A stretch of 18,485 bases of DNA from assembly GCA_046497485.1 (NCBI GenBank), contig JAWOFP010000028.1:1-18485 (forward strand). The letters run 5' to 3'. Position 1 is the stretch's first letter. Every line of letters begins with the position of its first letter. Made by a program: the position numbers and the translations under genes. This document shows positions 1,778 to 18,434 of this stretch, in pieces. The DNA comes from Candidatus Nanohaloarchaea archaeon (GTDB lineage: Archaea; Nanohalarchaeota; Nanosalinia; Nanosalinales; Nanosalinaceae). A model generated the notes under the pieces. The model saw nothing but the letters and a program-made list of their open reading frames with translations, did not search any database and was not told the DNA's origin.

Positions 1778-2289
1778 ATTTTGCAGAATTTTTGCCGGTC
1801 TTTTTCCGATATATATAGTGCGGTGTAGCCAAGTAGACTTATGCCCAAGATGTTTATCTCTAATCCGTTGTATGGTAGGAAGCTTACTCCTATGCTTGTT
1901 CCTGCGAGAGAAATTACTCCGGTTGTGCATGCGGCGCATCCTGAGACTGTCATGCTGAGGATGGTTCCTGTAAGGCCTCCTGTGGCGCCTTCTTTTGTGA
2001 TTACCTGAGTTAGTAAGGCCATGTTTATTCCTACAAGTAAAGAAGTTGTTACTGTTGTTATAACGACTAAAGGTGCTGTCGCATTGTGGTAGCCTGCTAC
2101 AAGCGAGGGAATTAATGAAATAAGTACTGAAAAATTTAGCTCAAAAATATATGAGCTAACTAGGCTTGAATTAGCTACTATCGCAAGAAGAAAATATGAT
2201 GTGAGGGATGCTATCCCTGCTATAGCAGCCGATCGCAGAGTGCTGATCCTTTCCCAGATGTTTGAAAGGTTCGATCTGCTAAGCTTCAT
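1774..2289 (-). CDS. Multi-pass membrane protein with SGCAAC (CxxC) motif
   Basis: 171 aa with about 4 hydrophobic segments and a CAAC motif in a hydrophobic region. Starts 1 nt after the DsbA-like gene stops, so probably co-transcribed. Confidence 0.75.
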   Translation of the reverse strand: MKLSRSNLSNIWERISTLRSAAIAGIASLTSYFLLAIVANSSLVSSYIFELNFSVLISLIPSLVAGYHNATAPLVVITTVTTSLLVGINMALLTQVITKEGATGGLTGTILSMTVSGCAACTTGVISLAGTSIGVSFLPYNGLEINILGISLLGYTALYISEKDRQKFCKI

Positions 2290-2290
2290 C

Positions 2291-3307
2291 TTACTGAGCC
2301 AGTTTATCCTCGATTACAGGCTTAAATGAAGAGTAAGGCTGTGCGCCCTCAATCATCTCGCCTTCGACGAACTGGGTCGGTGTTGCTGTAGCTCCTAATG
2401 CTGAAGCTTCATCTGCGTGATTTTGCACGGTGCTTGACTGTTCGGAGTTATCTATACATGACTGGAAACCGTTCTTTTCCACATTTAGCTGTTCAGCCCA
2501 GGAAACCATTATGGAATCATACTCATCAGGATTCTGTTGCTGTAACTCCTGTAACTCGTCAGAGTTCTGGTAATGATTGTAGTTGAAACTCCAGTAGGCC
2601 TCGGCGTCGCCATGTTCAAGGAAGCATTCAGATACTTCTGCAGGCCTTTCACCGCCTACTACGGGGAAGTTCTTGAAGTAGTACTTGACCTCTCCTGTCT
2701 CGACGTGGTTCTTAACGATGTCTTCGAAGGCTGAATTCATGTTGTTTTCAGCCGCGAAATCAGGGTTGTGGAACCCTGTACAGAACGGACAGAAATAGTC
2801 TTCATAACCGACTATCGTTACTTCAGCATCTTCTTCACCTAGGTAAGGCCTTCCATCCAGTTCAACTTCCGTACCATCCCATTCAACGTTCTCAGAGCCT
2901 GTACCTATATTCACGTCATAAGGCATGGATTCAATCTCTTCAATATCCGAGTTATCAGCGGTCTCTTCTCCAGAAGGATTAGCTTCTTCTCCAGAAGGAT
3001 CAGGCTGATCTCCGTCTTCTGAAGGAGGTGCCGCAACCTCCTCCTCGCTTAACCCGCCTACTCCGAACACTACTGTCCCAAGTAAAAGGCCTGTTAAAAG
3101 GCCTATAAGAAAGCTTCCGTAACCTACCTGTTTGATATTAAGATTTAGGCCTTGCTGTTCTTGATTTAAATTATTCTGTTGATTTTCTGTAGTGCTGGTT
3201 GCTTCAGCACTTTCAGTATCCTCGTCCTCGTGTTTCTGGGCCTGATGTATATGAAGGCCTCTTTCGGAGTCAAACTCCTTCCCACATTTCTCACATTTTT
3301 CTGTCAT
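2291..3307 (-). CDS. DsbA/BdbD-like thioredoxin-fold protein with N-terminal C2H2 zinc finger and a TM helix
   Basis: N-terminal CEKCGKEFDSERGLHIHQAQKH; hydrophobic GYGSFLIGLLTGLLLGTVVFGVGG; C-terminal GEEDAEVTIVGYEDYFCPFC ... GATATPT ... GAQPY, typical of the DsbA family. Confidence 0.85.
   Translation of the reverse strand: MTEKCEKCGKEFDSERGLHIHQAQKHEDEDTESAEATSTTENQQNNLNQEQQGLNLNIKQVGYGSFLIGLLTGLLLGTVVFGVGGLSEEEVAAPPSEDGDQPDPSGEEANPSGEETADNSDIEEIESMPYDVNIGTGSENVEWDGTEVELDGRPYLGEEDAEVTIVGYEDYFCPFCTGFHNPDFAAENNMNSAFEDIVKNHVETGEVKYYFKNFPVVGGERPAEVSECFLEHGDAEAYWSFNYNHYQNSDELQELQQQNPDEYDSIMVSWAEQLNVEKNGFQSCIDNSEQSSTVQNHADEASALGATATPTQFVEGEMIEGAQPYSSFKPVIEDKLAQ
2964..3000. repeat. Tandem duplication (TCTTCTCCAGAAGGAT x2, 21-nt period) in the acidic linker
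   Basis: Identical 16-mers at 2964-2979 and 2985-3000, encoding DPSGEEANPSGEE. Confidence 0.8.
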
Positions 3308-6847: not shown

Positions 6848-6880
6848 ACCACAACTGTAGTTACCGAAAGACAAAGAGTA

Positions 6881-6886
6881 TTTAAA
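6881..6886 (+). promoter_or_regulatory. Putative TATA box (TTTAAA) with purine-rich BRE-like sequence upstream
   Basis: Lies about 27-32 nt upstream of the ATG at 6913, the spacing expected for a leaderless archaeal transcript. Confidence 0.45.
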
Positions 6887-6912
6887 GGCCTGTTTCTATA
6901 TACTCGAATACA

Positions 6913-6990
6913 ATGGACGCATCACATTCAACCTCAGGTGGACGTTTTATTCCAATTAAAGGTGGATGCGTTCTGCAATTTTCAGAATGA
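6913..6990 (+). other. Putative 25-aa leader ORF MDASHSTSGGRFIPIKGGCVLQFSE with two copies of the AGGTGGAYG motif
   Basis: Manual translation from ATG 6913 to TGA 6988-6990. AGGTGGACGTTTT (6936-6948) and AAAGGTGGATG (6958-6968) match the serS/tyrS leader element, in the same reading frame. Confidence 0.5.
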
Positions 6991-7035
6991 ATTTTCTCAA
7001 AGATTAGACTTTTCAGGTATTATTCTGTTTTCAGT

Positions 7036-7084
7036 GAGTCTGCTGCTGCTTGGATAAAGCAGTAGCGGTCTCTTAAACCTTTTT
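7036..7084 (+). terminator. Strong hairpin followed by a T-run (terminator/attenuator-like)
   Basis: GAGTCTGCTGCTGCTT-GGATA-AAGCAGTAGCGGTCTC (7036-7072) forms a stem of about 15 bp with G-U pairs and one mismatch. TTTTT follows at 7080-7084. Confidence 0.55.
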
Positions 7085-7108: not shown

Positions 7109-7186
7109 ATGACACAACACAACACCAACCACACAACCGCACACAACCAGAAAACCCAGAAAAAGGCCTCAAAGGAGGTGAAATAA
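7109..7186 (+). other. AC-rich small ORF (MTQHNTNHTTAHNQKTQKKASKEVK) or unstructured leader
   Basis: ATG 7109 to TAA 7184-7186, abutting the ATG at 7187. CACAAC-type repeats. Confidence 0.35.
7174..7181 (+). promoter_or_regulatory. Shine-Dalgarno GGAGGTGA
   Basis: Perfect archaeal anti-SD complement 5 nt upstream of the ATG at 7187. Confidence 0.8.
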
Positions 7187-7465
7187 ATGGTAAAGACAGA
7201 TAAAGGAAGAGCGGTTCATGACGAGGCACAAGGATATGATGATTCTCCGCAGGTAGATGACCGTTTTGAGGATTATGATACTAAAATTCCGGACGATCTC
7301 TCAGATATGTCAGGAGAAGTAGATGATTATGATGTATCGGTAGAAGATGTTGATGTTTCAGTCTGGGATATGTTTGAAGTTAGTCAAAATCCTCTTGAAT
7401 CAGATGATGGAGAAGCAAATCAATCAGACGATAGCGACAGTTATGGTCCGACAACTATGTATTGA
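7187..7465 (+). CDS. Small, extremely acidic hypothetical protein
   Basis: 92 aa, D/E-rich, preceded by a perfect SD. No family recognised. Confidence 0.7.
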   Translation: MVKTDKGRAVHDEAQGYDDSPQVDDRFEDYDTKIPDDLSDMSGEVDDYDVSVEDVDVSVWDMFEVSQNPLESDDGEANQSDDSDSYGPTTMY

Positions 7466-13904: not shown

Positions 13905-14123
13905 TTAATTATTCATTATTCCTGCCAGAATTGTTGAAGCCACTAAAATCGTCGCTGAAAGCACTACAAAGTCTGCGCTTGGCTGCTCTATACCAGCTAA
14001 TGCTGCTCCCTGCACCACTACAAATACTGTGACGAAGAATGTCACGATAGCAAGGAGAATCATGACTGCGAAAGCCACTACATTACCTACCAGGCCTTGA
14101 AGCACATCTACTATATCGGACAT
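13905..14123 (-). CDS. Small two-TM membrane protein
   Basis: 72 aa with two hydrophobic helices. SD-like AGGTGA upstream. Confidence 0.75.
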   Translation of the reverse strand: MSDIVDVLQGLVGNVVAFAVMILLAIVTFFVTVFVVVQGAALAGIEQPSADFVVLSATILVASTILAGIMNN

Positions 14124-14161
14124 AATTTAATTCACCTAACAGTTATTTGGACTCAGGGCTT

Positions 14162-15430
14162 TTATTCCAACTCCAAGTACTCCTGTCCGCCCATATAACT
14201 CTGCAAGGCCTCAGGAATCCTAACTCCATTCTCAGTCTGATTGTTTTCAATAATCGCAGTCATGATTCTGGAAGTCGCACAAGCTGTCGCATTCAAGGTA
14301 TGAGCAACTTCGTTCTCATCGCCTTTTCTAATCCTGACATTGACCTTTCGAGCCTGATAATCAGTACAGTTCGAGCATGATACAATCTCTCCATACTCTC
14401 CAAGCGGAGGCCTCCAAACCTCAATATCATACTTCTTCGCAGCGTTATCATTCATGTCTCCAGTACATACATTTACGACTCTGTAAGGAAGATCTAATCT
14501 CTTAGTAACTTCCTCAGAATTTCTAAGAAGTTCTTCATGCATATCCCAGCTATTCTCGGGTTTACAGAATATGTACTGCTCTACTTTTTCGAACTGATGG
14601 ACTCTCCAAATCCCTCGAGTCTGCTGGCCGTGCTTACCGGCTTCCTGTCTAAAGTTAGTGGAAAAGCCGGCATACTTTTTCGGGAAGTCCTCTTCAAGCA
14701 GCAGATCATCTTTATGTAAAGTGGCTAAGGTCTGTTCCGAGGTCGCAATCAAGTATTTATCCTCATCCTCAATTTTGTAGAGCTGTTCCTCGAAGTCCTC
14801 TAATTCGGCTGCAGCACTCATAGCTTCATAATTCAGCATGTAAGGAGTCTGCATAGGAGTAAAGCCTTTCTCCCTCAGAATATCCATGGAAAACTGGATC
14901 AAGGCCTGATTCAATCTGAAAAGATCTCCCTTCAGATAGTAGGCTCTCTCACCTGCATTTTCAGCAGCCGTCTCGGAATGAATCAAATTATTTTCATCAA
15001 TTATATCGGCAGCAAGCCTTGCGTCTTCAACCTTTCCGCCTTCTGGTTCCCAAGTCTTAATCTCTTTATTATCGTGTTCATCTTCTCCTTGAGGAACTGA
15101 TTCATGCAGAATATTCCCGATCTCAAATCTCAATTCATCTCTCTCCTGTTTCAAGGCCTCTACTTCATCTTCAAGCTCGGAAATCTCTTCCTTAACTTCC
15201 GACATTCTCTCAATCTTATCCTCAGCGTCTTCTCCTGACTGCTTAAGCTCAGCGATTTCATCGCCTACACGGTTCCGCTCAGCTCTAAGCTCCTCGACTT
15301 TCTGAAGCTTTTCACGCCATTCTTCATCAAGATTTACTACCTCTTCTACTTTTTCAGGGTTCTTACCTCTTCTCTCCTCAGAGGCCTTAATCTCCTCAGG
15401 ATTCTCACGGAAAAGTTCAATATCAAGCAT
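14162..15430 (-). CDS. serS: Seryl-tRNA synthetase (bacterial/standard type)
   Basis: MLDIELFREN start, N-terminal coiled coil, LIATSE, motif 2 FRQEAGKHG...GIWRVHQFEKVEQ, EIVSCSNCTDYQAR, HTLNAT. Confidence 0.97.
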   Translation of the reverse strand: MLDIELFRENPEEIKASEERRGKNPEKVEEVVNLDEEWREKLQKVEELRAERNRVGDEIAELKQSGEDAEDKIERMSEVKEEISELEDEVEALKQERDELRFEIGNILHESVPQGEDEHDNKEIKTWEPEGGKVEDARLAADIIDENNLIHSETAAENAGERAYYLKGDLFRLNQALIQFSMDILREKGFTPMQTPYMLNYEAMSAAAELEDFEEQLYKIEDEDKYLIATSEQTLATLHKDDLLLEEDFPKKYAGFSTNFRQEAGKHGQQTRGIWRVHQFEKVEQYIFCKPENSWDMHEELLRNSEEVTKRLDLPYRVVNVCTGDMNDNAAKKYDIEVWRPPLGEYGEIVSCSNCTDYQARKVNVRIRKGDENEVAHTLNATACATSRIMTAIIENNQTENGVRIPEALQSYMGGQEYLELE

Positions 15431-15465
15431 AATTAACGCCTTGTAAAGAAAGTTTTAACTCTAAC

Positions 15466-15523
15466 AGGTTTTGAATCAATGTTCAAAATGCGGCCGGCTG
15501 GAAAAACATCCACCTTTCATTGT
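15466..15523 (-). promoter_or_regulatory. Conserved leader element upstream of serS; uORF MKGGCFSSRPHFEH (15520..15476)
   Basis: ACAATGAAAGGTGGATGTTTTT (15523-15502) is 21/22 identical to the element upstream of tyrS. Second shared block TTCAAAACCT (15475-15466). TTTTTAA about 30 nt upstream of the ATG. Confidence 0.7.
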
Positions 15524-15546
15524 AAATTATAATTCCAGATAAATAG

Positions 15547-15930
15547 TTAAAAATCTGCTCCTTCTAACTCAAGCAACTTTTTCTTGAGACCAAGGCCTCC
15601 ACTATAACCGCCTAAAGCGTTCTTACCAACTACTCGGTGACATGGCACAATAATTGGAACAGGATTACGGCCGCAGGCCTGGCCAACAGCTATCGGAGCA
15701 GTACCTAAAGAATCAGAGATCTCACCGTAAGATCTAGTTTCACCATAAGGAATCTTAATCATTTCTCGCATAACTCTGCCTGTAAAACTGTCTGGAAAAA
15801 CTAGTGCTAGATCAAAAGCCTTTCTCTCAGCTTTACTGTATTCCTCTACTTGTCTTCTAATTTCTTCTTCTGAGGCCTCTATAATGTTTTCATCTACTGA
15901 GGTTTCTTTATCAAAAATATTAATCCTCAT
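15547..15930 (-). CDS. ogt: Methylated-DNA--protein-cysteine methyltransferase
   Basis: IPYGETRSYG, AVGQACGRNPVPIIVPCHRVV, LGGYSGG...K..LLELEG. Start at ATG 15930 overlaps the upstream TGA (ATGA). Confidence 0.93.
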   Translation of the reverse strand: MRINIFDKETSVDENIIEASEEEIRRQVEEYSKAERKAFDLALVFPDSFTGRVMREMIKIPYGETRSYGEISDSLGTAPIAVGQACGRNPVPIIVPCHRVVGKNALGGYSGGLGLKKKLLELEGADF

Positions 15931-16667
15931 TTTTCTACTATCCAAATCATCTCCTGTTTTGAATCTTCCAGCTCTTCAAGATCAAAGCCTCCATAGACTT
16001 CCCAGTCGCTGAAACTAGAATTTTCGAGCAAAAGTTCGAATTCAGTCCTTGTTATCATCTTGGTATTTGCTTTTGAGCTCCATTTTTCTTCTCCATCTTT
16101 TACTAGTTTTTTCTCGAACTCTATTATCCAGTTCACCGAGTCGATCATTTCAACATTTTCTACAAGAGTATATTCGCCATCCTGAATTTCTCTTGTTTTT
16201 TCTTTACCGTAATTTTCAGCGATGAAATCAATGTCAGGACTGTAAAAGTTCAAAATCAGTTTCCCATCATCTTCTAGATGTCTATAGATTGAATCAAGTG
16301 TTGACAACTGATCTTCGATTGTCAGATTATGCAGGAAACTTCTGTAAGGAATTATAATCAATGAGAATTTTTCATCAAGATTAAAGTCTCTCATATCCTC
16401 TTGAGAAACATCGGGATTAAGACTTCTTTTCTCAGCTTTTTCTCTAAGCTTCTCTAGCATCTCTTCCGAAAGATCGATTCCATAGGCCTCTACGCCCTCT
16501 TCCAACATCTGGAGGTAGATTCTTCCGGTTCCACAGGCGACTTCTAGAACTTTTCCGTCAGTCTCTTTCGCTCTCTCAACATAAAAATCTATGTCATTGC
16601 CGTCGTTGTTCTCTTGAGATACTATATCGTATAGGTCGGCGTAATCCTTCACATCTTCGTAGGGCAT
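15927..16667 (-). CDS. Class I SAM-dependent methyltransferase
   Basis: VLEVACGTGR (motif I), GIDLSEEML, DMRDF, HLEDDGKLI. Confidence 0.9.
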   Translation of the reverse strand: MPYEDVKDYADLYDIVSQENNDGNDIDFYVERAKETDGKVLEVACGTGRIYLQMLEEGVEAYGIDLSEEMLEKLREKAEKRSLNPDVSQEDMRDFNLDEKFSLIIIPYRSFLHNLTIEDQLSTLDSIYRHLEDDGKLILNFYSPDIDFIAENYGKEKTREIQDGEYTLVENVEMIDSVNWIIEFEKKLVKDGEEKWSSKANTKMITRTEFELLLENSSFSDWEVYGGFDLEELEDSKQEMIWIVEK

Positions 16668-16719
16668 AATAACGAATTAGAAAAGGTATAAAGAAAAATG
16701 TGGTTGTTTCCTCAAGCCT

Positions 16720-17766
16720 CTAACTCCACTCCTCTTTTTCAGGATAAGCCCTTTCCAGTAACTCATCTTCGTCTTCAAACCTTTCTCTGATAGGCCTGAG
16801 GATGTTTGCGAGCTCTTTGCCGGTAGCTTCTTTTAAGTCTTGAGGGTGAAGCTCCTCAGAAACGAAATCTTCCTTCAAGTCCTCATAACTCGAGTATTCA
16901 AGGTCGCCTCCGTATTTTTCAGGTCTCTCAACTACAAAGTTCTCTCCGTCCTGTTCGAGGATCGGGAAAATCAAGTAATTTAGGTATTCTAGGACTCCAT
17001 TATCCTCTACTTCTCCTTGAGGGCAGTAGGCCTCGTTGATTTTTTCACTGACATCTTCTTCAGTGTCATGGATACTGATCTTCGAGTTTTCATCTGATGC
17101 ACTCATCTTTCCGCCTGTCAGGCCTGAAAGCAGAGGTGCGAATATGCTTGTCGGCTTTTTCTCTCCAATATCTGGCAGAACTTCTCTGGCGAGCATATAG
17201 ATTCTTCTCTGATCTCTTCCGCCGTAGGCAACGTCCACATCTAGACCTGGAGATGCGCAGTCCATTATCTGCATCGCGCTATAAAGCAGTCCTGAGGCCT
17301 TCATACCGTCGCTGTTTCTAACTACTTCGTTTACAGATCTCTGCATCCTGTTGACTGTGGCTTCTTCCATGATCTTCATGTAGCCTTTCTGGTATTCGGG
17401 ATCGTGCTGGAACTCGCTACCTCTGACAAACTCAATATCGTTTTCATCTATGCCTGAGGCTTCCAGCATCCCCTGAATGGCCTTTCTGTAGTACTCTGTT
17501 CTTGCGTCGACCAGTTTACGCGGTGATTTCTCTATGTCTAACTCTGCGTGTATATCCGCCAAAAGGAACTTGAAAGTGAATCCAGACTCCACGAAATCAG
17601 CGATCTTTCTGACTGTGGTGAAATGCCCTATGTGCATGGTTCCTGTCGGGGCGTATCCAATGTATGCGACAGGATTGTCTTTGTCAAGAATTCCTTCGAT
17701 TTCGTCCTCTGTTATTGTTTCAGCGGTGTTCCGCAGAAGCAGTTCTTTGCGTTCATTATTATCCAT
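16720..17766 (-). CDS. tyrS: Tyrosyl-tRNA synthetase (archaeal type)
   Basis: AYIGYAPTGTMHIGH (HIGH), LLADIHA, LYSAMQIMD, GGRDQR, KMSAS (KMSKS), AYCP, LHPQDLK. Confidence 0.95.
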   Translation of the reverse strand: MDNNERKELLLRNTAETITEDEIEGILDKDNPVAYIGYAPTGTMHIGHFTTVRKIADFVESGFTFKFLLADIHAELDIEKSPRKLVDARTEYYRKAIQGMLEASGIDENDIEFVRGSEFQHDPEYQKGYMKIMEEATVNRMQRSVNEVVRNSDGMKASGLLYSAMQIMDCASPGLDVDVAYGGRDQRRIYMLAREVLPDIGEKKPTSIFAPLLSGLTGGKMSASDENSKISIHDTEEDVSEKINEAYCPQGEVEDNGVLEYLNYLIFPILEQDGENFVVERPEKYGGDLEYSSYEDLKEDFVSEELHPQDLKEATGKELANILRPIRERFEDEDELLERAYPEKEEWS

Positions 17767-17829
17767 TATTTTGATCTACCTGTGAATTGGTTGGGAGAGA
17801 ACGCTTAAAGATTTAGAGCTGAATTTAGA

Positions 17830-17884
17830 AGGTTTTGAAACTTTTCTACATGTGTCGACGGTAAAAACGTCCACCTTTCATTGT
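17830..17884 (-). promoter_or_regulatory. Conserved leader element upstream of tyrS; uORF MKGGRFYRRHM (17881..17846)
   Basis: ACAATGAAAGGTGGACGTTTTT (17884-17863), TTCAAAACCT (17839-17830), TTTAAAA about 30-36 nt upstream of the ATG. Confidence 0.7.
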
Positions 17885-17927
17885 GTATCAAATAGGGATT
17901 CTGGACCGAATTTTAAATCATTATCCT

Positions 17928-18434
17928 CTATACCACGTCCACAACTTCAGGCTCGACGACGTTAAACAATTCTTCTCTATCAATTTTCACACCTATAACT
18001 CGAGAACCGCCAGCAGGCCTCACCTCTCCTTCGGGTATGTCATCTGATGCGTAGACTGGTATTTCTAGGTTAAATGGTGAGACTCCTCCAACTATGTAGC
18101 CAGTCTCTTCTTCTACTTCTGAAGGCTTTGCCATCCTAACCTCTCCAACTAAATCCTCTAATTTATCCTCATCTACTCGCTTATGACCGGGACACATCAC
18201 AGCGATAAAATCATCTGAGGCCTTGAAAATCAAAGTCTTGATAATCTGATATCTATCAATCGGAGAATGCTGGACGGATTCGTCGACGGTTTCGGCCTTT
18301 GCATGGACTTCAAAATCTGCATCAAGGCCTTCCAGTTTTTCAATTACTTTTCTGACATTTTGAATATCTTCTTCTAGGAAATCTAGAATTTGTTCGAGTT
18401 CTGATGGTTTCTGTGTGAAAGATTTCAGAGACAT
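17928..18434 (-). CDS. YbaK/ProX-family aminoacyl-tRNA deacylase
   Basis: IIKTLIF (conserved Lys), EETGYIVGGVSPF, PAGGS motifs. Confidence 0.88.
   Translation of the reverse strand: MSLKSFTQKPSELEQILDFLEEDIQNVRKVIEKLEGLDADFEVHAKAETVDESVQHSPIDRYQIIKTLIFKASDDFIAVMCPGHKRVDEDKLEDLVGEVRMAKPSEVEEETGYIVGGVSPFNLEIPVYASDDIPEGEVRPAGGSRVIGVKIDREELFNVVEPEVVDVV

Follow-up and report, generated by a model that had tools for sequence, protein, structure and literature searches.

A codon-programmable leader element before aminoacyl-tRNA synthetase genes in Nanohaloarchaeota, with a proposed frameshifting read-out

The window analysed here, a stretch of 18,485 nucleotides (nt) from a Candidatus Nanohaloarchaea archaeon (contig JAWOFP010000028.1), carries the genes for seryl-tRNA synthetase (serS) and tyrosyl-tRNA synthetase (tyrS), each preceded on the minus strand by a short upstream open reading frame (uORF) in which a conserved nucleotide motif is followed by one variable codon. 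An earlier reading of this DNA, made from the sequence alone, had proposed that the two leaders share an element whose variable codon names the amino acid of the synthetase downstream, and that this element senses the amino acid or the charging of its tRNA. The proposal was followed up by comparative sequence analysis of metagenome-assembled genomes (MAGs), to which all of the results below belong. The element, its spread through the phylum and a possible read-out by programmed frameshifting are described in turn.

The serS and tyrS leader units of the window

The two units have the same layout, in which a TATA-like box is followed by a short leader open reading frame (ORF) in frame 0, the conserved motif with its Shine-Dalgarno (SD)-like element, the variable (sensing) codon, a longer ORF in the +1 frame, and the gene for the aminoacyl-tRNA synthetase (aaRS). 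Their features, in window coordinates, are as follows.

15546-15553, minus strand: TATA-like box P1 of the serS leader unit, from the sequence; overlaps the stop codon of the upstream MGMT-like gene
15476-15520, minus strand: serS leader ORF, frame 0, MKGGCFSSRPHFEH and stop, probably leaderless; from translation and promoter spacing
15503-15517, minus strand: conserved motif of the serS leader, AAA-GGT-GGA-TGT-TTT, with SD-like GGTGG, candidate E-site codon TGT and candidate P-site codon TTT; from motif searches
15500-15502, minus strand: sensing codon TCC (Ser) of the serS leader, proposed A-site codon at the shift; TCC or TCT in 17/17 SerRS-adjacent copies
15433-15501, minus strand: +1-frame ORF of the serS leader, PAGRILNIDSKPVRVKTFFTRR and stop; the stop TAA (15435-15433) lies 2 nt before the serS ATG
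15466-15475, minus strand: motif 2, TTCAAAACCT, of the serS leader; from alignments
15452-15458, minus strand: TATA-like TTAAAAC, 28 nt before the serS ATG; probable second promoter P2 for a leaderless serS mRNA
14162-15430, minus strand: serS, seryl-tRNA synthetase, 422 amino acids (aa), ATG at 15430; TIGR00414 serS, E 1.9e-140
17911-17917, minus strand: TATA-like box P1 of the tyrS leader unit; from the sequence
17846-17881, minus strand: tyrS leader ORF, frame 0, MKGGRFYRRHM and stop; from translation
17864-17878, minus strand: conserved motif of the tyrS leader, AAA-GGT-GGA-CGT-TTT, with SD-like element, candidate E-site codon CGT and candidate P-site codon TTT; from motif searches
17861-17863, minus strand: sensing codon TAC (Tyr) of the tyrS leader; TAC or TAT in 7/7 TyrRS-adjacent copies, and 8 more from the tyrS survey
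17776-17862, minus strand: +1-frame ORF of the tyrS leader, TVDTCRKVSKPSKFSSKSLSVLSQPIHR and stop; from translation; stop TAG at 17778-17776
17830-17839, minus strand: motif 2, TTCAAAACCT, of the tyrS leader; from sequence and alignment
16720-17766, minus strand: tyrS, tyrosyl-tRNA synthetase, 348 aa, ATG at 17766; tblastn, 42% identity to the TyrRS of a relative; the minority 'type A' of the phylum

The shared element proved to be real. The 22-mer ACAATGAAAGGTGGAYGTTTTT occurs exactly twice in the window, at 15523-15502 and 17884-17863 on the minus strand, with 0 matches expected from 200 dinucleotide-preserving shuffles of the window, and the same two copies are the only ones within four substitutions in the whole source assembly (G000; 967,558 bp in 66 contigs, 41.5% G+C). 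The uORFs translate as the sequence-only reading had given them, codon 7 being TCC in the serS leader (15502-15500) and TAC in the tyrS leader (17863-17861), and the TATA-like runs that it had noticed lie 33-37 nt before each ATG. The +1 stop of the tyrS leader is placed 9 nt before the tyrS ATG and overlaps an SD-like AGGT.

Cognate codons and reading frames across the phylum

The motif ATGAAAGGTGGAYGTTTT was searched for, with up to two mismatches, in relatives of the source genome and in the whole phylum, which in the collection comprises 70 genomes of a single order and five families. It was found in 33/41 relatives (81 hits, against 8 for the reversed control) and in 58/70 genomes of the phylum. 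As some copies lack the ATG of the motif, its conserved part is AAR-GGT-GGA-YGY-TTT, after which comes one variable codon. When one genome for each of 185,579 species was scanned for exact matches, 108 stretches were obtained, 80 of which supply the figures that follow: 32 are titled Nanohaloarchaea, Nanohalobium, Nanosalina, Nanohalarchaeota or Asbonarchaeum and 5 'uncultured archaeon', while 41, about the chance expectation, are from bacteria and two Thaumarchaeota. Two stretches (L123 and L149) are titled as a Colwellia MAG; their motif coordinates are those of contigs C10 and C2 of the nanohaloarchaeal genome G023, and the title is probably wrong.

The 81 copies from the 33 genomes were taken with their flanks, and the ORFs downstream were named by NCBIfam. 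Directly before an aaRS gene stand 60 of them, and in 60/60 the variable codon is cognate to the enzyme, across 11 amino acids; as related genomes are not independent, such counts overstate the number of independent events. The copies divide as follows (enzyme; copies; codon after the motif).

ThrRS; 19 copies; ACC, ACA or ACT
SerRS; 17 copies; TCC or TCT
GlyRS; 9 copies; GGA
TyrRS; 7 copies; TAC or TAT
ValRS; 2 copies; GTA
CysRS; 1 copy; TGT
LysRS; 1 copy; AAG
PheRS-alpha; 1 copy; TTC
TrpRS; 1 copy; TGG
ProRS; 1 copy; CCG
HisRS; 1 copy; CAC

A further 6 copies have the cognate aaRS gene 0.6-1.3 kb downstream (CysRS behind a Nudix gene, TrpRS, HisRS), and no non-cognate aaRS follows the motif in any of the 81. 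Other copies precede TrpB (TGG) or the threonine ammonia-lyase IlvA (ATT); TGG copies are also found before a HisC-like aminotransferase, GNAT proteins and an M20 deacylase, AAA before endonuclease V, and some copies before ORFs without a family. The sequence-only reading had looked to orthologues that keep their Ser and Tyr codons and to other aaRS genes with codons of their own; both are found, the former in all SerRS and TyrRS leaders listed above and the latter before the Thr, Gly, Val, Cys, Lys, Phe, Trp, Pro and His enzymes. The core of that reading, an amino-acid-specific cis sensor in which a variable codon names the amino acid, is supported by this tabulation, and on these comparisons the element is very likely a cognate-codon sensor uORF.

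Several observations indicate that frame 0 of the leader is translated. The motif lies within an ATG-initiated frame in 80/81 copies: where its own ATG is missing, an in-frame ATG is found 2-12 codons upstream, before any stop, in 18/19 copies, the lone exception (L051) being the second member of a cascade. In the +1 frame, 17/19 of the copies without their own ATG have no nearby upstream ATG. A TATA-like hexamer is present 28-43 nt before the leader ATG in 49/60 leaders, and because of this spacing the leader ORF is probably leaderless or nearly so. Translation of the uORF and its probable leaderless start, both assumed in the sequence-only reading, are thus borne out to that extent by the upstream ATGs and the promoter spacing.

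The translated frame also bears on a second mechanism considered in the sequence-only reading, direct pairing with tRNA. In a T-box-like form of it, uncharged tRNA would bind the variable codon directly, and its NCCA end would pair with UGGA in the motif. The likeness to bacterial T-boxes lies in the logic of the regulon, with one cis element, an exchangeable specifier codon (matching in 60/60), aaRS, biosynthesis and other amino-acid genes as targets, and copies that are sometimes in tandem; GGGUGGA also seems to resemble the T-box sequence. However, the element is about 20 nt long and translated, with no Stem I or antiterminator, and no conserved Stem I-like structure or long helix was found; only 6 nt separate the codon from UGGA. 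The A of UGGA does not vary, whereas the discriminators of tRNA-Ser, Tyr, Thr, Gly, Pro and His in G000 are G, A, U, A, A and C, respectively. A search against Rfam (E<=1) gave neither a T-box nor any other relevant family for the window and for 15 additional loci covering 10 amino-acid classes, the hits seen overall being a signal recognition particle RNA and two sub-threshold chance matches. Of four defining features of a T-box, three are absent (covariance-model match, covariation with the discriminator, untranslated leader) and the specifier match is present. Direct tRNA pairing is accordingly not upheld, and a T-box-like riboswitch is highly improbable.

The clearest regularity concerns the reading frames downstream of the sensing codon, which were analysed in the 60 aaRS-adjacent leaders. 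Frame 0 meets a stop 9-75 nt after the sensing codon in 60/60, and the three frames compare as follows (frame; stops per codons; leaders in which the frame ends within -14 to +12 nt of the aaRS start).

Frame +1; 1 stop in 1717 codons; 58/60
Frame 0; 155 stops in 1736 codons; 0/60
Frame -1; 80 stops in 1682 codons; 7/60

In 1000 shuffles of the leaders, the number in which the +1 frame ended near the aaRS start averaged 16.6 of 60 and never exceeded 28. The commonest ending is an ATGA stop/start overlap (16 leaders), followed by a stop 5 nt (11 leaders) or 10 nt (8 leaders) after the A of the ATG. One of the two exceptions, L047, fits if the SerRS start is placed 9 nt later, and the motif of the other, L053 (Pro), is degenerate. 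The same +1 pattern was found in 37/37 nanohaloarchaeal loci of the exact scan, against 11/41 of the copies in unrelated genomes. Early closure of frame 0, combined with a +1 frame that runs on to a functional end, is one mark of a regulatory programmed +1 frameshift site of the prfB kind.

These statistics also bear on whether the motif could be a chance repeat, or a promoter or initiator DNA element unlinked to amino acids. The motif does sit at the predicted transcription start, which such an element would explain. Against this stand the 60/60 codon match over 11 amino acids, the frame statistics and the restriction of the pattern to the phylum, by which the explanation is refuted as far as sequence can tell; its probability is negligible. 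The sequence-only reading, with two examples in hand, had allowed for coincidence; the occurrence in 33/41 relatives and 58/70 genomes and the codon match go well beyond chance.

A further possibility, close to the uORF stalling considered in the sequence-only reading, is that a pause at the cognate codon remodels the leader RNA or protects it from termination with no change of frame. Cognate codons in a short translated leader ORF are the definition of leader-peptide attenuation, as in the bacterial amino-acid operons and pheST, and they are present here, together with Cys and branched-chain runs; the 6-7 frame 0 Cys codons of the Cys leaders and a covarying hairpin at the sensing codon of the Gly class would fit such a mechanism. 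Stalling alone, however, leaves unexplained both the openness of the +1 frame and its ending at the gene start. Most leaders have a single cognate codon, in a fixed place behind a nucleotide motif, and the read-out appears to be a change of frame, which sets them apart from the bacterial attenuators. No terminator/antiterminator hairpin pair, no conserved alternative hairpins and no general excess of structure were found in folds of 12 Ser, 8 Gly and a total of 60 leaders. Of the stalling idea, sensing through a cognate codon is retained and stalling by itself is not: the +1 frame is open to the aaRS start, which points to frameshifting. Attenuation by stalling only is considered quite unlikely.

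Anatomy of the candidate shift site and leader variants

The sequence GGTGGA is present in 76/80 copies, and GGT GGA is never varied synonymously, even in high-G+C genomes, while the first Y of YGY switches between Arg and Cys codons, a non-synonymous change; for these reasons the constraint lies on the RNA and not on the peptide. The 3' tail of the 16S rRNA of the genome ends in GGAUCACCUCCA (also excerpted as GGATCACCTCCA and CACCUCCA), with which RGGUGG could form six pairs, both A and G at the R position pairing with U. When the sensing codon occupies the A site, UUU stands in the P site in 70/80 copies and GUU, CUU, AUU or CCU in the others, CGY or UGY stands in the E site, and a spacer of 3-4 nt (A-YGY or YGY) separates the SD-like GGUGG from the P-site codon. 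According to the relevant part of Atkins et al. 2016 (PMC5009743), an SD-like sequence at a spacing of 3 nt stimulates +1 shifts and one at 9-14 nt stimulates -1 shifts; known +1 sites include CUU (release factor 2 (RF2), Ty1), CCC (pheL, Listeria phages) and GCG (Ty3, yeast antizyme), and the RF2 site is a CUU-to-UUU slip governed by the decoding of the next codon. A shift-prone P-site codon and, about 3 nt 5' of it, an SD-like stimulator complementary to the 16S tail are thus both in place, although a role of this element on the archaeal ribosome can only be presumed from the sequence.

Diverged leaders are informative in this respect. The thrS leader of G000, which was missed in an nhmmer search of that genome with the 21-nt motif (6 further plausible copies were found) and was recognised by looking upstream of the gene, reads CGT-GGT-CGT-CCC followed by ACT, with the peptide MKRGRPTIR and a +1 frame that ends as an ATGA overlap with thrS. 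Diverged serS leaders have CCC then TCT (G010, G057, G058) or GCG then TCT (G024). Where the motif diverges, the P-site codon becomes another slip-prone codon (CCC, GCG, CUU).

A universal stimulatory hairpin 3' of the sensing codon was not found in the 60 leaders (mean z -0.58, with z < -1.5 in 18/60). RNAalifold gave for the 12 Ser leaders only a 4-bp helix without covariation, and a pairing of GGAYGU with a downstream ACRUUU, seen by eye in several Ser leaders, is absent from the consensus fold. Only the Gly class (8 leaders) has a covarying hairpin, which starts inside the sensing codon.

Leaders of a second kind came to light in a survey of serS, which is present in 62/70 genomes. The 57 upstream regions examined comprise the following.

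35/57: type I leader, with Ser codon and +1 frame to the start
8/57: type II leader
1/57: motif present with the -1 frame open (G055)
11/57: no leader evident
1/57: masked by N
1/57: too short for judgement

The eight type II leaders (families f3 and f4; L204 in G026, L205 in G043, L207 in G029, L210 in G031, L211 in G035, L226 in G030, L230 in G037 and L224 in G027) read M(T/Q/K)G(F/C)(Y/C/S/L)RQS and have a Ser codon at position 8 in 8/8. Here it is the -1 frame that is open, to +1 to +5 of the serS start, in 8/8. A weak SD-like GGG lies 9 nt before the presumed P-site codon, and a convincing slippery sequence was not identified in these leaders. In types I and II alike, the direction of the open frame appears to follow the spacing rule known from bacteria.

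The type II leaders also help in judging an account that needs no frameshift, namely that the long +1 frame of type I leaders is initiated separately, at the GTG of the motif (giving M-D-V-F), with ribosomes on the short frame modulating access to it. All 80 type I copies have this GTG in their +1 frame, and in the cases in which a protein is fused to the +1 frame it would provide ordinary N-termini, for example in the HisC-like aminotransferase of L077, whose profile match begins at residue 32. However, among about 145 hits (up to two mismatches allowed) neither ATG nor TTG ever stands in place of the GTG, which is odd for a mere start codon; the GTG has no SD sequence before it, and its distance from the presumed 5' end is 7 nt. 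Stalling at the sensing codon would leave the GTG hidden under the ribosome, so that starvation would lower aaRS synthesis, the wrong sign, and single units and two-step cascades would be regulated in opposite directions. The account does not apply to type II leaders, in which the long frame has no conserved start codon (none whatever in G035), and it leaves the slip-prone P-site codons unexplained. Because the GTG is invariant and lacks an SD sequence, the sign is wrong and type II is not covered, initiation at the GTG is rated below frameshifting and, although the main rival, is unlikely.

The tyrS gene is present in 64/70 genomes, and among the 57 upstream regions examined a clear leader was found in 14, an unclear one in 1 and a promoter only in 42. 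Two types of TyrRS exist in the phylum. That of the window belongs to the minority type, with 61-73% identity to ten others, and at all ten of these closest minority-type tyrS genes the leader is absent, while the window leader resembles those of majority-type tyrS genes. These comparisons suggest that the tyrS ORF of the window was replaced in place behind a retained leader. Directly upstream of the tyrS leader lies a gene for a YbaK-type aminoacyl-tRNA editing domain (17928-18431, minus strand), and a YbaK-type neighbour, recognised by its C-terminal sequence, is also found before tyrS in many relatives.

A hungry-codon frameshift as candidate sensor, its targets and its relatives

Frameshifting is the simplest account of the element, since it accommodates a frame 0 that is translated, a single cognate codon, an SD-like element at the spacing for +1 shifts, a slip-prone P-site codon, an early frame 0 stop and an open +1 frame that runs to the gene start. 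We put at about 0.6 the probability that the read-out is a hungry-codon programmed frameshift in the leader ORF, translationally coupled to the aaRS gene. In this scheme, the ribosome would start at the leader ATG and read K-G-G-(R/C)-F, bringing a slip-prone codon (usually UUU) into the P site and the single cognate sensing codon (TCC for serS, TAC for tyrS) into the A site, while the SD-like GGUGG 3-4 nt upstream would pair with the 16S 3' tail. With plentiful cognate aminoacyl-tRNA, the sensing codon would be read and frame 0 would end 3-25 codons later without effect. With scarce aminoacyl-tRNA, the A site would stay empty and the peptidyl-tRNA would slip by +1, and translation would continue in the stop-free +1 frame up to the aaRS start, where termination at an ATGA overlap, or at a stop within a few nt, would lead to initiation on the aaRS gene. 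As an alternative to reinitiation, the shift may keep the leader translated and in this way allow both transcription and translation to continue. The slip, its dependence on tRNA charging, the leaderless initiation and the coupling downstream are all read from sequence patterns and are to be taken as predictions. The 17 sequencing runs listed for the 14100-18000 part of the window are recorded as probable DNA, with no RNA run among them.

A second promoter inside the leader would probably provide a basal, leaderless aaRS mRNA. A TATA-like hexamer is found at -27 to -29 of the aaRS ATG in 21/60 leaders and within -50 to -24 in 41/60. In the window, motif 2 (TTCAAAACCT) is accompanied by a TATA-like run 27-43 nt before the aaRS ATG (the two together at 15452-15475 and 17804-17839, minus strand), and the combination is retained where serS lacks a leader ORF (L220, L223), so that motif 2, which acts at the nucleotide level and is possibly part of an internal promoter, probably forms with the TATA-like run a promoter for leaderless aaRS mRNA. 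The contribution of the leader would then be a regulated component, carried by transcripts of the upstream promoter; in these, the internal aaRS start frequently has no good SD sequence and would rely on coupling. Two other explanations of motif 2 were dropped: a conserved +1-frame peptide S-K-P, as the same nucleotides occur in different frames in L012 and L019, and a mimic of the tRNA T-arm or an anti-SD sequence, for which a check by eye gave no supporting pairing.

Several points weigh against the frameshift. The serS leader of G055 (L219) has the -1 frame and not the +1 frame reaching the start; its motif is GGCGGACGCGCG followed by TCT, without the GTG and with a T6 run downstream, which may reflect either a genuine variant or an indel of the assembly. 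No leader was found at 42/57 tyrS and 11/57 serS genes, and the probable internal promoter would allow basal aaRS expression independent of the leader. The SD-like pairing uses another register of the 16S tail than that of RF2, so that the notion of 'strained spacing' may not be transferable. With A or G as the first letter of the sensing codon (Thr, Gly, Val, Ile, Lys), tRNA-Phe would re-pair imperfectly after the slip. The lack of a universal stimulatory hairpin and the GTG that every type I motif holds in its +1 frame (G-GTG-GA), a possible start without frameshifting, count in the same direction.

Further copies of the element extend beyond single aaRS leaders. The window itself contains an Ile/Leu leader on the plus strand, with the following features.

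6880-6887, plus strand: TATA-like box of the Ile/Leu leader; from the sequence
6913-6990, plus strand: Ile/Leu leader ORF, MDASHSTSGGRFIPIKGGCVLQFSE and stop, two modules in one frame; from nhmmer and translation
6949-6951, plus strand: ATT of the Ile module GGTGGACGTTTT + ATT, within the 6913-6990 leader
6973-6975, plus strand: CTG of the Leu module GGTGGATGCGTT + CTG, within the 6913-6990 leader
6950-7057, plus strand: +1 ORF of the Ile/Leu leader, ending in GIILFSVSLLLLG, a branched-chain-rich run, and then TAA (7055-7057)

The pair of Ile and Leu modules is also found in L067, and the Ile-class leaders of relatives end in similar branched-chain runs. Beyond this leader, a CA-rich mini-ORF, MTQHNTNHTTAHNQKTQKKASKEVK and stop, abuts the ATG of a 92-aa acidic ORF without a Pfam family (7110-7465, plus strand); similar Thr/His/Asn-rich mini-ORFs follow Ile- or Val-class leaders in L041, L059, L067 and L074.

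On contig C32 of G000, a CCA (Pro) module has a +1 frame that overlaps, as ATGA, a class II aaRS gene with an HGTP anticodon domain. The module on contig C46 of G000 (2200-3110; L188) has GAA as P-site codon and AGA (Arg) as sensing codon, and its +1 stop forms a TAATG overlap with the beginning of a 260-aa ORF without a family, which is followed by an M20 (ArgE/DapE-like) deacylase gene. Contig C17 of G000 (26800-27215; L189) contains a cascade of two CAC (His) modules: the +1 frame of the first holds the second, whose +1 frame in turn encodes a 103-aa MazE/AbrB-type DNA-binding protein 1.8 kb upstream of hisS and also upstream of GNAT and AstE-like genes. The same design recurs in L043 and L055, and the transcription factor of L189 may be made only when His-tRNA is short. 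Across all loci, two close pairs of motifs lie in one frame; in the others, the second motif is in the +1 frame of the first in 6/6 (His 3, Trp 2, Ser 1), with none in the third register.

In the Trp-class units (L063, L048, L077, L078), the regulated ORF joins the leader at the shift site as a +1-frame fusion, in the manner of prfB, and encodes GNAT proteins, a HisC-like aminotransferase or an M20 deacylase. A first Trp module precedes, and the +1 peptides of these first modules have ISS-x-K...SW in common. The Cys-class leaders (L006, L010, L034) have 6-7 Cys codons in frame 0, for example MKGGCVCGDGDDDGCGCGGDCDC and MKGGCVCRGGDDDDGCGCGDGCGCC, each followed by a stop. L006 and L010 stand before a Nudix gene and then cysS, while L034 precedes an ORF without a family and no CysRS gene was found downstream of it.

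Among known systems, the closest parallel is the frameshift site of bacterial prfB (RF2), which as described has a very short frame 0 ORF, an SD-like stimulator some 3 nt before the shift codon and a P-site slip (CUU to UUU) set by slow decoding in the A site, the frameshift serving as both sensor and effector. Here, by contrast, the A-site codon is a sense codon, so that one aminoacyl-tRNA would be sensed rather than a release factor; the module is reused with at least 14 codons, the host is archaeal, and the new frame is mostly a spacer to the gene start (fused exceptions are L077, L063 and L189). The sites of Ty1/Ty3, EST3 and antizyme are likewise described as having a slow A-site codon, sense or stop, beside a P-site CUU or GCG, codons that also occur among the P-site variants here, but they set a product ratio or sense polyamines and form no family of amino-acid sensors. 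The mycobacterial polycysteine ORFs, reported in a preprint as leaderless Cys-rich uORFs that respond to cysteine, recall the Cys-class leaders; they are bacterial and are described as attenuators without frameshifting. In the ermC leader, ketolide-induced frameshifting activates the downstream gene (PMC5009743), the trigger being an antibiotic on the ribosome and not a hungry codon, in bacteria and for a single gene. According to the same review, no case in which hungry-codon frameshifting yields starvation-specific products was known by 2016, and the pheL frameshift seems incidental (PMC5009743). For Archaea, the pertinent passages of a 2021 review of recoding (PMC8211752) give a single -1 case and do not mention Nanohaloarchaea.

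The sequence-only reading had stated that no such cis system was known for archaeal aaRS genes, and this agrees with a search of the full-text literature, subscription journals excepted, in which no paper on the element or on a cis amino-acid sensor for archaeal aaRS genes was found. We know of no T-box, attenuator or comparable cis system in archaea, and to our knowledge the question of how archaea match the expression of aaRS and amino-acid genes to tRNA charging is largely open.

Taken at its widest, the proposal is that Nanohaloarchaeota possess a phylum-wide codon-programmable switch, in which hungry-codon frameshifting in leaderless leader ORFs would be the general means of sensing each amino acid, in the +1 direction at an SD spacing of 3-4 nt and in the -1 direction at 9 nt, with aaRS genes controlled by termination-reinitiation and cascades gating an AbrB-type regulator, GNAT proteins and biosynthetic enzymes; to this we would give even odds. 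If the frameshift is real, it would provide the first example from nature in which hungry-codon frameshifting serves to sense an amino acid, and it would add more than 100 conserved recoding sites in Archaea. The sensing codon labels the genes downstream with an amino acid, which would connect GNAT proteins with Trp, the AbrB-type regulator with His and the operon of the M20 deacylase with Arg, and the module of about 20 nt offers a compact design for synthetic sensors. The system would then fill the role that the T-box regulon has in bacteria, with the ribosome itself as the device.

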